Source: a virus
DNA: 64,000 nucleotides
Direction: 5' to 3' (one strand)
IMG/VR virus record: IMGVR_UViG_3300005096_000137
Coordinates: 1-64,000 of that record
The position numbers and the translations under genes were made by a program. A model generated the notes under the pieces. The model saw nothing but the letters and a program-made list of their open reading frames with translations, ran no database searches and had not been told where the DNA came from. The first letter of the stretch is position 1. Each line of letters starts with the position of its first letter. Below are positions 1,577 through 60,798 of the stretch, in pieces.

Positions 1577-2244
1577 TGGCGACCATCCGTGGCACCTTAG
1601 AGAATATCACAAGCCCGCCTACCGACGTGTTTATCTTTGGACTAGGATGGAAGCTCCCAGCCGGTTATACAGAGTCGATCATCGCTGACGTCGCAGTGCT
1701 TCAAGACCTATACCAGGCTGAAGACGAACTCGAAGCCCTAATGGCTGCGTCTAAGATTGAAATCCGAAATTCAGCAGGGACCCTTGTTATTCCCGGAGGA
1801 GTCTATGCTTGGCTCAATGATTCCAGTTCCTCCGGAATCATTTCTCCAACACACATTGTCTCCTTCCACATTAGCAACTGCATCACATCTCAGGGAGAAC
1901 GCTGGTTCCAATGGGTTCCTAACATAACACACCTCGAAGTACCATGGCCTATCAATTCTCAATTCACAATCCTACGTGTTGCACTTGGTGTTGACAAAAT
2001 TGATTCCAGTAATACTTATGGTATTCATATGTATTCAAATACAGACCTGTTTACCCCTGTATTTGAGACTGGTGTGGTTCTACCACTAAACTCCAAGTCA
2101 TCTGGTAAGGATTTTCCCTTTGCTCCAACCCCTCAACAATTTCCTGGGGGTGACTACTTGTTCTCATGCTACCGTGTGAGTGGTTCAGGCAGATCAGACT
2201 TTGACAAGGTAATGCTGACCATATACTACCTGAGGCAAGAATAA
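1576..2244 (+). CDS. Virion protein, paralog array A (2/4)
   Basis: TAATG coupling; N-terminal GTLENI motif. Confidence 0.7.
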   Translation: MATIRGTLENITSPPTDVFIFGLGWKLPAGYTESIIADVAVLQDLYQAEDELEALMAASKIEIRNSAGTLVIPGGVYAWLNDSSSSGIISPTHIVSFHISNCITSQGERWFQWVPNITHLEVPWPINSQFTILRVALGVDKIDSSNTYGIHMYSNTDLFTPVFETGVVLPLNSKSSGKDFPFAPTPQQFPGGDYLFSCYRVSGSGRSDFDKVMLTIYYLRQE

Positions 2245-15090: not shown

Positions 15091-15981
15091 ATGGCTCGAA
15101 GAGAAACATTCGTCAACGCCGCGATTACCGAACTGGCATCCAGCCTGACTGATGTTGCCACAACGGCTACTGTCGTTGATGGAAGCACCTTCCCCTTGAC
15201 TGGGGATTACCGGATTGTCATTGGCGAAGAGCTGCTCATGGTCACTTCCCGAACAGGGGATGTGCTGACCGTCGAGCGGGGGCTGGAGAGTACAACGGCT
15301 GTTGCCCACAATGCGGGTGACCAAGTCAATGCTATCCTCACGAGGGGTGCCATTGAAGACTATACCAAACAAAACACATGGCATGGGAACTCATCCCCTC
15401 CCCTGCAAAACTACATTCTGGCAACGGGCGCCCCCGCAATTGCGTCAGACTTCACTTGGGTTAATCAAGGAACTGCGTCCGCCACTGATCGTGGAGGGCG
15501 CGTTGTTTTGCAGACCCCACCAGATGCCGGCGACCAGATTCGAGGGCTGTTTCAGGCAGCCCCCTCAGCCCCTTATGAAATTATCCTTGCGTGCCATGGA
15601 TCTGGTGAGTCATCCGGGAATGGGCAGATCGGACTGGCATTCCGGGAGTCAGGGACCGGGAAGATTATGACTCTCGCCAACTTCCTGACCAATGATATCG
15701 AAGTCGCCAAGTACACCAGCCCGACTGCATTCAGTGCATTGCTTGGAACAAAGAAGCCCTGGGATGTGGGGCAGTCTGTGACCTGGCTCAAGATTGCAGA
15801 TGACAACACAAACCTGAAGTTCTATGTTGGTCCCAATGGGCAGGATTGGATTGAAGTTGGTTCCGAAGGTCGCACAGTCTTTATGGCTGGGGGTCCTAAT
15901 GAAGTTGGTTTCCACACCAACCCTGATGGCTCCAACACATATGACATCCTAATGGAAATCTTCCACTTCGGAAGTGTGTAA
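15091..15981 (+). CDS. Array B (4/5)
   Basis: Full-length paralog. Confidence 0.75.
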   Translation: MARRETFVNAAITELASSLTDVATTATVVDGSTFPLTGDYRIVIGEELLMVTSRTGDVLTVERGLESTTAVAHNAGDQVNAILTRGAIEDYTKQNTWHGNSSPPLQNYILATGAPAIASDFTWVNQGTASATDRGGRVVLQTPPDAGDQIRGLFQAAPSAPYEIILACHGSGESSGNGQIGLAFRESGTGKIMTLANFLTNDIEVAKYTSPTAFSALLGTKKPWDVGQSVTWLKIADDNTNLKFYVGPNGQDWIEVGSEGRTVFMAGGPNEVGFHTNPDGSNTYDILMEIFHFGSV

Positions 15982-52049: not shown

Positions 52050-52184
52050 TTAAGCGCGAAGACTGGTTCGACTCCAGTACGCTCGTCGAGGTTCGGTAGG
52101 GAAGTCAGGTTCGATTCCTGATGATTGAGGTCTGGGTGTAGGACACAGCTCCCAGGCTAAGGGTGGTCTCCAGGACGCGCTTAA
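52050..52184 (+). ncRNA. Structured RNA with two T-arm-like hairpins
   Basis: 9-bp closing stem TTAAGCGCG/CGCGCTTAA; ACTGG-TTCGACT-CCAGT and TCAGG-TTCGATT-CCTGA. Confidence 0.65.
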
Positions 52185-52956: not shown

Positions 52957-53309
52957 GGGCAGGTATCTTGGTGAGGGGAGATGATCACCCTGGGGGTTCG
53001 ATACCCTCTACTTGTTCAGTGAGTGGGTTATGGACGTGACAGGCCTGACCGCCTGGGAGGTAAGATTCCTCGCCCACTTGCATGGAGGACCCTACGAGGT
53101 GGGGACGTACATGGGTAAAAGTCCATTATGGAAGAACTACCCGCGTGCGTCGAGGTTCGTAACCTTACTCCTCCGCTTTAGTTTATCAACTGAACCGGCA
53201 CCGGATGGTGTTCCTTCGTGACTCACCCACGATAGGTTGGTAAGCGTTAATGGGCGGTCCCCGCGACAAGTCTATACGACAAACCGTCTGGGGTACGACT
53301 CCCCGCCCT
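52957..53309 (+). ncRNA. String of tRNA-like mini RNAs (52957-53018, 53021-53080, 53084-53175, 53183-53243, 53252-53309)
   Basis: Each has a closing stem; four have a 3' T-arm-like hairpin. Confidence 0.55.
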
Positions 53310-55985: not shown

Positions 55986-56711
55986 ATGGGACTTATCACT
56001 GACTTTCTTGCGAACGCTACGAGTATTGACACCACCCCTGAGATCACCGCGTTGGACCGCACTGTGGTGAAGGAGTTGAATGCCGCCATCAGTCGGGGCG
56101 ACCCCAACCTACAACCTGCCCTAGAGGGTACTAACGAGGTTCAAGCGCTGGCTCAGTATGCTGTGAATCACTCTGGAGGTACATTTGCCCTCTTGGTCAC
56201 ACTCGCGAACGGTGAATCGGTTACAACAGCAGCCATTGCCTTTGGTGCTGATGCTGCCACAATTGAAGCGGCGATTGACACTGCTGCCAATGGTAATATC
56301 ACCGGGTGGGTTGATGGCGATATCTCGATTGCTGGTGGTCCACTCACAGCAGCCGCCGCATCCGTGACCTATGATGGGGTATCAGTATCAGACACTAACC
56401 AGGTGTTGATCACCTTGGATGGCGCACTATTAACGGGCGGGACCACAGCCTCGCCTGCTACGACGATCACCACAGAAGGTCAAAGTGCCCGGCGTGCTTG
56501 GGGTGTTTTGGTAGTTCTGGGCATCATTGATATCAGTGAAGTTCCCGCCCAAGGCGTGGATCCAGGTATTCTGACTCTGGTCACAGCTCCCGGAGACAAT
56601 TCATACTACCCAACCGCAGCCACGATTCGTGCCCTGGCAGACGAGGTAGGTATCACAGATGATAGTGTTGCAGCTCGGGACGCAGTCTTGCGGGCAGCAA
56701 AGCTCCTGTAA
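55986..56711 (+). CDS. EVQ-domain protein (structural-like) outside the virion module
   Basis: AAGGAG RBS; domain shared with ORF 3..938 and the major tail protein. Confidence 0.8.
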   Translation: MGLITDFLANATSIDTTPEITALDRTVVKELNAAISRGDPNLQPALEGTNEVQALAQYAVNHSGGTFALLVTLANGESVTTAAIAFGADAATIEAAIDTAANGNITGWVDGDISIAGGPLTAAAASVTYDGVSVSDTNQVLITLDGALLTGGTTASPATTITTEGQSARRAWGVLVVLGIIDISEVPAQGVDPGILTLVTAPGDNSYYPTAATIRALADEVGITDDSVAARDAVLRAAKLL

Positions 56712-56719
56712 CAGTTAAG

Positions 56720-56791
56720 GCGACGTTGGTGTTAATGGTAGCATGACTGGTTTCCAACCAATTGGTGAGAGTTCAAATCCCTCACGTCGCA
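56720..56791 (+). tRNA. tRNA-Gly(TCC)
   Basis: GCGACGT/ACGTCGC acceptor, loop TT-TCC-AA. Confidence 0.88.
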
Positions 56792-56794
56792 CTT

Positions 56795-56878
56795 TACCGT
56801 CACGGTGTAACCGGCATCACACTAGATAGTACCTATAGGGCTATCTGGAGGAATGGGTTCGGGTCCCGAGGGCGGTAC
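56795..56878 (+). tRNA. tRNA-like RNA with extended anticodon arm
   Basis: TACCGTC/GGCGGTA acceptor; CTAGATAG/CTATCTGG stem; no canonical loop. Confidence 0.5.
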
Positions 56879-56880
56879 TT

Positions 56881-56957
56881 TGCCGTAGTGGTGTAAATGG
56901 CACAGCATACCAGGGCGTCCACCCTGGAGGCATGGGTTCGATTCCTGGGTGCGGCAC
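56881..56957 (+). tRNA. tRNA-like RNA, 8-nt anticodon loop (GCGTCCAC)
   Basis: TGCCGTA/TGCGGCA acceptor, GGTTCGATTCC. Confidence 0.6.
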
Positions 56958-56966
56958 TTTGAGTTT

Positions 56967-57073
56967 TGCAGCGGTGGTGTAAAAGTGATCTAGGGAGGCC
57001 TCTCTAGGTACCATAGGTGAACATTACTGGGTTAGATACCCGGAGATGGGGGTTCGACTCCCCCACGCGGCGC
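56967..57073 (+). tRNA. tRNA-like RNA (AGA) with D-loop hairpin insertion
   Basis: CTGGG-TT-AGA-TA-CCCGG; perfect T arm. Confidence 0.65.
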
Positions 57074-57082
57074 TTCGAGTTT

Positions 57083-57188
57083 TGCAGCGGTAGTGGAAAA
57101 GTGATCCCGGAAGGCCTTCTGGGGTCCCATAGGTAACATTCCAGGCCTTTTAGCCTGGCGACAGGGGTTCGAGTCCCCTACGCTGCAC
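57083..57188 (+). tRNA. tRNA-Lys-like RNA (TTT, 8-nt loop) with D-loop hairpin insertion
   Basis: TGCAGCG/CGCTGCA acceptor; tandem paralog of previous. Confidence 0.65.
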
Positions 57189-57189
57189 T

Positions 57190-57263
57190 GTAGCTATGGT
57201 GTATTTGGCCTGCACAAGCCCTGCGAATGTCTAGGAGATGGTTCAAATCCTCTAGTCACTCCA
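57190..57263 (+). tRNA. Degenerate tRNA-like RNA (GCG)
   Basis: D arm and GGTTCAAATCC present; weak anticodon stem; ends TCCA. Confidence 0.4.
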
Positions 57264-57271
57264 TATTCCTC

Positions 57272-57300
57272 TTGACTGTCAACGAATTCAAGGTTATACT
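57272..57300 (+). promoter_or_regulatory. sigma70-like promoter
   Basis: TTGACT-17-TATACT. Confidence 0.8.
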
Positions 57301-57306
57301 AGAAGC

Positions 57307-57468
57307 TCACGGCTTAAAGGTGTTGTCTGAGAAATGACACGCGCCCGCAACGTGCGGGTGCCATTTTATGAATCAGGACTTAAAGTGCCGCGATGGTGGC
57401 ACTCCACCAGAATAAACCTGGTGGTGTCACGTGGACCCAGGTTGTCGTGCATCGCATCGTGGGTCCGC
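57307..57468 (+). ncRNA. Multi-hairpin RNA between the promoter and tRNA-Pro
   Basis: Five consecutive hairpins, e.g. GCGCCCGCA/TGCGGGTGC, CCACCAG/CTGGTGG, GTGGACCCA/TGGGTCCGC. Confidence 0.5.
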
Positions 57469-57471
57469 TAC

Positions 57472-57545
57472 CTGGATGTAGCTCAGTTTGGTAGAGCGGG
57501 TGGTTTGGGACCATCAGGCCGGAGGTTCGAGTCCTCTCATTCAGA
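57472..57545 (+). tRNA. tRNA-Pro(TGG)
   Basis: Canonical cloverleaf. Confidence 0.95.
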
Positions 57546-57620
57546 CTTAGCTGACCTGCCATGTGTAGGTTCAGTAACGGTACCGTCAGGTGGCGGTACC
57601 AGCCTTTAACGGAGATCACA

Positions 57621-60726: not shown

Positions 60727-60798
60727 GCGCGAGAGGCAACATGGTGTTGCGGCGGGCTTTCAATCCCGTTCTGGTGGGTTCGATCCCCATCTCGCGGT
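60727..60798 (+). tRNA. tRNA with 8-nt loop CTTTCAAT (Glu TTC or TCA register)
   Basis: GCGGG/CCCGT stem; 5-6 bp D stem; GTGGG-TTCGATC-CCCAT. Confidence 0.7.

Follow-up and report, generated by a model that had tools for sequence, protein, structure and literature searches.

Tandem tRNA-derived genes in a phage tRNA array carry a putative fifth arm within the D loop

What kind of RNA is encoded by two neighboring phage genes that resemble tRNAs and hold a hairpin inside the D loop? These genes, hereafter T1 and T2, lie in a tRNA array within the window analyzed here, a stretch of 64,000 nucleotides that forms the first 64 kb of a complete uncultured viral record (148,427 bp, approximately 50% G+C). 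The phage encodes a siphovirus-type tape measure protein, and related prophages were found in genomes of Pirellulales, Thermoguttaceae, and other Planctomycetota. Because its relatives are prophages of this bacterial phylum, Planctomycetota are the probable host, and an archaeal host was rejected on the same grounds. A preliminary description of the sequence had offered a new tRNA architecture and a D-loop intron among the possible readings of the two genes. Our analysis supports the former, since the insert sits in an otherwise canonical D loop and its pairing is kept in both paralogs and in close relatives.

T1 (56968..57073) and T2 (57084..57188) are both on the + strand and score 125.8 and 114.5 bits, respectively, with covariance model R1. 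As first described, they are tandem paralogs: they align unambiguously over 106 columns with a mean column identity of 86%, and outside the insert they have diverged by 26%. The acceptor stem of each twin has seven positions, running from G1-C72 to G6-C67 and closed by a G7·A66 mismatch. T1 has a second mismatch (A3·G70) and a discriminator G at 57072, the T2 stem reads GCAGCG/CGCUGC with a discriminator A at 57187, and neither gene encodes CCA. An extra A that had been placed between the T stem and the acceptor is more plausibly A66 opposite G7, that is, a mismatch within a 7-bp acceptor. Both twins contain the elbow and core nucleotides U8, A14, G18, G19, and A21, a D stem composed of G10·U25, U11-A24, G12-C23, and position 13:22, and a variable loop of 4 nt. 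The T loop is UUCGA on a perfect 5-bp stem in T1 (57048..57064, + strand, GGGGG-UUCGACU-CCCCC) and in T2 (57163..57179, + strand, AGGGG-UUCGAGU-CCCCU). All elements of the cloverleaf core (7-bp acceptor, D stem, UUCRA T arm, and elbow nucleotides) were found in both genes.

The anticodon-like arms depart from this regular picture. T1 forms 5 bp with a 7-nt loop, UUAGAUA (A34 G35 A36, followed by U37; 57027..57043, + strand), whereas T2 forms 6 bp (CCAGGC/GCCUGG) with a 6-nt loop, CUUUUA (57141..57158, + strand). An alternative drawing of the T2 arm has 5 bp and an 8-nt loop, CCUUUUAG; ARAGORN draws the 6-nt version. The anticodons had been given as AGA and TTT. AGA does lie in the 7-nt loop of T1, but TTT does not occupy a normal 7-nt loop in T2, where the loop is of 6 (or 8) nt. 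A standard anticodon loop, with 7 nt, U33, and a purine at position 37, was found in neither twin: T1 has U33, but with A34 and U37.

The + strand array that contains the twins (56720-57546) consists, in order, of tRNA-Gly(UCC), two odd tRNA-like elements, T1, T2, a weak tRNA-like element, a promoter-like site, and tRNA-Pro. At its head, the canonical tRNA-Gly(UCC) (56720..56792, + strand) is called by ARAGORN and scores 51.4 bits in Rfam; it is the closest ordinary relative of T1 and T2, with 67% and 58% identity, respectively, once the insert is deleted. Of the two odd elements, the first (56797-56878, + strand) is a paralog of the tRNA-Gly-type family whose anticodon stem is 8 bp long and whose loop has 11 nt. 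The second (56882..56956, + strand) is a tRNA-Gly-type paralog that has no D-loop insert and has an 8-nt loop, GCGUCCAC; its Rfam tRNA score of 24.4 bits falls below the gathering score, and it is 61% identical to T1 and 67% to T2 without their inserts. Position 7:66 is a purine-purine pair in both of these elements too. Downstream of T2 lie the weak tRNA-like element (57189-57262, + strand) and, between it and tRNA-Pro, the promoter-like site at 57272. Altered anticodon arms are also seen in other tRNA-like elements of the array. These identities assign T1 and T2, as tandem paralogs, to the tRNA-Gly(UCC)-type lineage of the phage itself.

Several other features near the array were recorded. 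The ORF at 55986-56711, which directly precedes the array, is present as a single copy in this phage and has many relatives, which show no synteny to tRNAs; in the closest viral relative (L045:4894-8066), three paralogs of this ORF family are interleaved with tRNA genes. A further tRNA-like sequence at 60727-60798 of the window has an 8-nt anticodon loop, CUUUCAAU, which ARAGORN reports as 'ttca' under relaxed settings, and it lies near a thioredoxin-like gene; a search with this thioredoxin-like neighbor as sole query found no relatives. Just past tRNA-Ala, the window holds two isolated T-arm-like hairpins (CTGGTTCGACTCCAG and TCAGGTTCGATTCCTGA; 52050-52130) with no other recognizable tRNA parts, and between the tRNA clusters, at 53181-53249, there is a match to the Rfam DUF3800-IX RNA (45.6 bits; gathering score, 36.8).

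Standard tools do not detect the twins. Neither is called by ARAGORN under default settings or matched by Rfam at gathering score, and the tRNA model RF00005 (gathering score, 29 bits) gave no hit over either gene even at E<=10. In E-value mode, Rfam matches their T arms alone, weakly, to tmRNA models. When the insert was deleted in silico, ARAGORN at default settings called both twins as tRNAs of 74-75 nt (75 nt for T1). The insert is the sole obstacle to detecting T1 and T2. Because its deletion restores the tRNA calls and the genes then align with their local relatives, the insert represents a clean addition to the canonical D loop of a local tRNA-Gly-type paralog.

Both inserts are 31 nt long, in keeping with the original estimate of about 30 nt, and the hairpins quoted at that time were exact. 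In T1, aligning the insert-free gene with tRNA-Gly and the 56882 element places the insert between A17 and G18 (56985..57015, + strand), so that the D loop runs from A14 to A17, continues through the 31 extra nucleotides, and resumes with G18 G19 U (G) A21. The T1 arm core (56988..57009, + strand) is a 9-bp stem with a GGCC loop at 56997-57000, ATCTAGGGA-GGCC-TCTCTAGGT. The T2 insert (57101..57131, + strand) has its arm core at 57103-57126 and its GGCC loop at 57113-57116; the hairpin itself spans 57104-57125 (+ strand) and reads ATCCCGGAA-GGCC-TTCTGGGGT. Each arm starts with GUG/CAU, followed by a 2-nt bulge on the 3' side, 9 bp, and the GGCC loop, for approximately 12 bp altogether. RNAalifold, which was not supplied with this layout, predicted the arm (pairs 18-20/45-47 and 21-29/34-42) and a D stem enclosing it; the 3' strand of the enclosing D stem in T2 is ACAU at 57136..57139 (+ strand, positions 22-25), a placement that relatives of the phage also support.

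Thermodynamic predictions for single sequences were mixed. The five-arm fold lies above the minimum free energy by 2.5 kcal/mol in T1 and 4.3 kcal/mol in T2, and in the minimum-energy fold, the 5' D strand pairs instead with CCAU within the insert. T2 folds more stably than expected (z-score of -2.9; 0 of 200 shuffles fold as well), whereas T1, with a z-score of -1.3, does no better than its shuffles.

The claim that compensatory changes preserve the stem and the GGCC loop held up: all nine arm-core pairs are standard in each paralog, although three have changed on both sides (U-A/C-G, A-U/C-G, and G-C/A-U) and two on one side (G-C/G-U). The T stem adds one further compensatory pair. When eight random changes were simulated in an 18-nt stem, all nine pairs survived in 0.05-0.5% of cases at realistic transition fractions and in 7.6% with transitions only; the changes observed in the arm stem comprise six transitions and two transversions. 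Between the twins, strong divergence of the arm stem and of the anticodon hairpin has left both as hairpins, and hardly any changes are found in the unpaired D-loop flanks, the AGGCCU apex, or the elbow nucleotides. Diverged stems that stay paired, together with near-invariant flanks, apex, and elbow, point to a structured RNA under selection. Each arm stem holds two G·U pairs, which implies that the hairpin forms on the + strand only.

The same pattern extends to close relatives. Contigs from three public runs, belonging to three studies, carry the twins at roughly 90-97% identity, and all seven of the substitutions listed within the genes fall in stems, where pairing is kept or improved. The public runs listed for this phage include no RNA run. 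In the T1 arm, 56990 C>T turns a C-G pair into U·G, and 56991 T>C together with 57006 A>G converts U-A to C-G, a new compensatory pair. In the T stems, 57063 C>T (T1) and 57178 C>T (T2), which occupy the same column, each yield G·U. The relative from run X3 has two changes in the T2 D stem: 57136 A>C replaces G13·A22 with a G-C pair, in support of the enclosing D stem, and a U·G pair results from 57138 A>G. Together, the comparisons between twins and with close relatives indicate that pairing of the fifth arm is maintained by compensatory change. In the relative from one run, 56796-56926, containing the upstream odd elements, is swapped for 127 unrelated letters and tRNA-Gly and the twins are kept, so the array turns over around them.

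Beyond these relatives, the design was not found. Covariance model R1 detected no third copy in the phage genome, and searches with R1 found the design neither in 80 viral loci identified through the SNF2 helicase encoded 5 kb downstream (helicase identity, 45-71%), nor in 30 of those viral records searched whole, nor in 11 Planctomycetota genomes with related prophages. All R1 matches in the searched relatives were ordinary tRNAs, apart from three tRNAs whose inserts occupy a different site. At the DNA level, exact and degenerate versions of the arm pattern had 0 matches in viral contigs; an arm-type pattern had at least 120 matches in metagenome contigs, and those among the matches listed proved on inspection to be due to chance. 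Among INPHARED phages, a distant search matched tRNA-Pro only and a near search matched nothing. The expectation that homologues retain the hairpin is borne out for the close relatives of the three runs and fails for the 80 loci, 30 records, and 11 genomes covered by the covariance-model search. Conservation covers very close relatives and the two paralogs, and since the design is absent from these loci, records, and genomes, it appears to be young or narrowly distributed.

Other explanations for the hairpin were considered and rejected. A dispersed palindromic or miniature mobile element is at odds with the copy number, as GGCC-capped hairpins of at least 8 bp occur only twice in the 148 kb (both strands scanned), both times in the twins, and with the G·U pairs (G·T in DNA), which restrict pairing to the + strand. 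A terminator is likewise rejected, since no U tract follows the hairpin and no terminator is predicted there; a Shine-Dalgarno mimic fails because GGAGG is present in T1 only; and pairing between the anticodon loops of T1 and T2 amounts to 4 bp, which is not above chance. A kissing-dimer module, also proposed in the preliminary description, is a separate and speculative case: the conserved AGGCCU apex is self-complementary, but loops of 4 nt make poor kissing partners, and palindromic tetraloops arise by chance in 1 of 16 cases.

We tentatively favor the reading that T1 and T2 encode functional RNAs derived from tRNA, which have kept a fifth arm and act as tRNA mimics or non-standard tRNAs in the conflict between phage and host over tRNA; their function we infer from structure and context. 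The twins would be transcribed with the array and excised by RNase P and 3' processing, and CCA would be added by the host, as no CCA enzyme was found in the phage. The folded RNAs may then be L-shaped, and the arm would project from their elbow. The 6-nt CUUUUA loop of T2 could imitate positions 32-37 of the tRNA-Lys(UUU) loop, and the twins could serve either as competitive decoys for host tRNA-cleaving defense nucleases or as cleavage-resistant surrogates, with the bulky arm at D-loop position 16/17 altering or blocking recognition by a nuclease that reads this spot. A setting of tRNA conflict is suggested by the tRNA-like elements with altered anticodon arms and by two RNA ligases, RlaP, and Ro60 encoded in the same phage.

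Work on other phages provides a precedent. Changes in the loop allow phage tRNAs to evade anticodon nucleases (PMC10264068), the PARIS nuclease AriB cleaves tRNA-Lys(UUU) (PMC12409363), and the tRNA-Lys(UUU) of T5 resists AriB (PMC11464382, PMC12409363, PMC10264068). An AlphaFold 3 model by the authors of one of these studies places D-loop residues U16-U17 in contact with the second AriB subunit, a U16C change impairs AriB cleavage, and viral tRNAs have been suggested to act as competitive nuclease inhibitors as well (PMC12409363). That the arm is located exactly at position 17, in the D-loop region of the AriB contact, is why we prefer a mimic or decoy. The parallel is by analogy with E. coli, and a corresponding defense nuclease in the host is only supposed. 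Like the nuclease-evading phage tRNAs, in which the anticodon stem-loop and D-loop position 16 are altered, T2 has a Lys(UUU)-like loop. The twins differ in having gained a whole helix and in their non-canonical loop sizes, whereas the known evaders carry point substitutions and can still decode. Several features of T1 speak against the mimic reading: its loop is unlike any known nuclease target, its fold z-score is -1.3, and its acceptor contains two mismatches.

The strongest competing possibility, although unlikely, is that the twins are genuine five-armed decoders. T2 would be charged by LysRS (UUU, A73) and read AAA, possibly as a tRNA with an 8-nt loop, T1 would read UCU or another codon, and the arm would be tolerated or protective. 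Acceptor, T arm, and elbow nucleotides are intact. ARAGORN found no tRNA-Lys(UUU) elsewhere in the phage, AAA makes up 32% of its Lys codons, and its remaining tRNAs mostly read A-ending codons. An 8-nt loop alone does not rule out decoding; yeast mitochondrial tRNA-Thr1 decodes with a loop of this size. However, a C-G pair closes the T2 loop to 6 nt, and T1 combines A34, U37, G73, and two acceptor mismatches with the lack of a serine-type long arm. Moreover, a matching synthetase is absent from the phage, in which none of the families PF00152, PF00749, and PF00587 is encoded, and an arm beside G18/G19 may clash with ribosomal elbow contacts. Given the abnormal anticodon hairpins (6 bp with a 6-nt loop in T2; A34/U37 and two acceptor mismatches in T1), T1 and T2 most likely do not take part in ordinary decoding.

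It is improbable that the twins are decaying tRNA pseudogenes, in which a palindromic DNA element entered a tRNA-Gly paralog that was then duplicated in tandem and left to drift. Decay could account for the failure of standard finders on both genes, for the abnormal anticodon loops and the T1 acceptor mismatches, for the other degenerate-looking tRNA-like elements in the array, and, through fast turnover, for the replacement of the upstream elements in one relative. Drift is nevertheless hard to reconcile with genes that differ by 26% outside the insert while compensation has kept every arm pair and nearly every core pair, with almost invariant unpaired D-loop flanks and elbow nucleotides, and with relatives whose substitutions all preserve pairing. 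The G·U pairs and the lack of another genomic copy argue against a DNA palindrome at the origin.

A role in RNA repair or RNA quality control must be weighed because of the gene content of the phage, which encodes Ro60 (TROVE plus vWA_Ro60), RtcB (345 bits), an Rnl-type RNA ligase (PF09414), and RlaP, an RNA-repair nucleotidyltransferase (L044:16166-17740; L245:1318-2853; L301:6644-7723; L301:9491-10399). With these proteins, the phage possesses an extensive set of RNA-repair and RNA quality-control functions. The twins could be partners or substrates of a Ro60/Y-RNA or RNA-repair module, with the arm as a protein docking site, or they could regulate RtcB. Y-like RNAs occur in the phage together with these proteins, the apex of the arm is conserved in sequence while its stem covaries, and bacterial Y RNAs of the YrlA class mimic tRNA (PMC4201824). 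We nonetheless regard this reading as doubtful, since the Ro-binding motif GNCGAA(N)G is absent from both twins, the Rfam YrlA model (RF02553) does not match them, they end at the acceptor stem, unlike YrlA, and the Ro60 gene and RtcB are about 19 kb and about 79 kb away, respectively. The sole RF02553 match in the region is a 19-nt piece of tRNA-Pro (15 bits).

Other unusual RNA genes were noted in this phage and its relatives. An HD_4 protein is encoded just upstream of Ro60. Outside the window, at 73543-73950 of the genome (L044:13543-13950), there are two tandem units of a tRNA followed by a Y-like RNA of about 66 nt. The tRNAs of these units carry a 52-59-nt insertion in the anticodon loop and score 52.6 and 47.4 bits with the Rfam tRNA model, and the RNAs of about 66 nt, near 73.7 kb, show the Y-RNA hallmarks GCCGAAG...GUUAUCU...CACUUGCC and a weak match to the nematode sbRNA family RF01656. 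In tRNA genes of related phages, an inserted hairpin of about 45 nt separates the D arm from the anticodon arm (L080:14594-14715; L048:about 15170-15295; L052:5187-5292), a site that differs from that of the twins; one of these genes has a GUU Asn loop. A 109-nt tRNA-like sequence is conserved between two further related phages (L050:318-426 and L054:7996-8104); its acceptor and T arm are perfect, its D arm contains GG, and about 59 nt stand in place of the anticodon arm. Planctomycetota MAGs contain arrays of 30-39 tRNA genes (L292:1587-1682; L294:3283-3375(-) and 1837-1928(-); L296:2823-2915), in which several class I tRNAs (Pro GGG, Gly UCC, and Val) are 92-96 nt long; the extra length is a shared hairpin of about 22 nt (CGACCA...UUCG/UGCG...GGUGCC) after the anticodon arm.

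Hardly probable is the intron first suggested for the D loop, in which a hypothetical endonuclease would cut out the 31-nt insert and the phage RtcB or Rnl-type ligase would seal the D loop to give ordinary tRNAs of 74-75 nt: precise excision would leave a canonical D loop of 9 nt and a tRNA of standard length, the phage does encode a ligase for 2',3'-cyclic phosphate/5'-OH ends (RtcB, 345 bits) as well as a second RNA ligase, and hairpin inserts occur at other positions in tRNA genes of the phage and its relatives, but the host phylum is bacterial, the tRNA splicing endonuclease domain (EndA, PF01974) is absent from the phage (the control matched archaea only), and the predicted junction combines an internal loop (4x5-6) with a helix of 3 bp and, on the 3' strand, a bulge of 2 nt, which does not amount to a bulge-helix-bulge (3-4-3) or a relaxed version of it. 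Self-splicing fares no better, as 31 nt compares with a catalytic core of at least 200 nt in group I/II introns and no Rfam intron family is found there. Furthermore, the apex and flanks are conserved in the manner of a functional domain, the anticodon loops would stay abnormal after removal, and tRNA repair explains the phage RtcB well enough. Archaeal tRNA genes with non-canonical D-loop introns are found in Crenarchaeota and Asgard archaea (PMC3241643, PMC4090602), and the twins resemble them in having a short D-loop insert whose removal would restore a canonical tRNA; they differ in lacking a bulge-helix-bulge and EndA, in their bacterial host, and in an insert conserved as a retained domain. 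Were the hairpin a true intron, excised by such an endonuclease and resealed by RtcB or the Rnl-type ligase, an outcome that we hold to be very remote, it would be the first case of protein-dependent tRNA splicing in a bacterial virus, and the same pathway might handle the hairpin inserts elsewhere in the tRNA genes of this phage group.

Returning to the retained arm, how do the twins compare with known RNAs? They share with canonical class I tRNAs (RF00005), such as tRNA-Gly(UCC), the 7-bp acceptor, the 4-bp D stem, G18G19 and A21, the 4-nt variable loop, the 5-bp T stem with its UUCGA loop, and the absence of an encoded CCA, and they differ in the 31-nt D-loop hairpin, the abnormal anticodon loops, the 7:66 mismatch, and their sub-threshold scores. 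Like the twins, class II tRNAs (Leu, Ser, and Tyr) have a fifth helix and tRNA-Sec has an elongated D stem with a 4-nt loop. However, the extra helix of class II tRNAs is the variable arm, whereas that of the twins is inside the D loop and their variable loop is 4 nt long. Similarly, tRNA-Sec has an 8/5 or 9/4 geometry, a long variable arm, and UCA, none of which is found in the twins, which have a 7/5 geometry and AGA or UUU(U). Phage T4 offers another comparison in its stable RNAs C and D, which derive from its tRNA cluster, are tRNA-shaped, and are not known to decode. The YrlA Y RNAs of bacteria and phages (PMC4201824) share the tRNA shape; their genes accompany those for tRNAs or RNA repair, tRNA enzymes act on them, and no decoding role is known for them. 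YrlA combines a closed acceptor with ends located in a Ro-binding stem, while the twins keep the tRNA topology, have no Ro motif, and do not match RF02553. In the literature on D-loop insertions or arms in bacterial or phage tRNAs, we found no description of a D-loop hairpin arm.

Few RNA designs are as conserved as the four-armed cloverleaf, to which a helix maintained in the D loop would be a natural exception. Since the twins are invisible to gene finders and Rfam, phage tRNA repertoires are under-counted. The elbow, where the arm is situated, is recognized by RNase P, the ribosome, and modification enzymes and, reportedly, by at least one antiphage tRNase. If the arm protects from such nucleases or baits them, it would reveal a new structural route of phage counter-defense that goes beyond point mutations in the anticodon loop.
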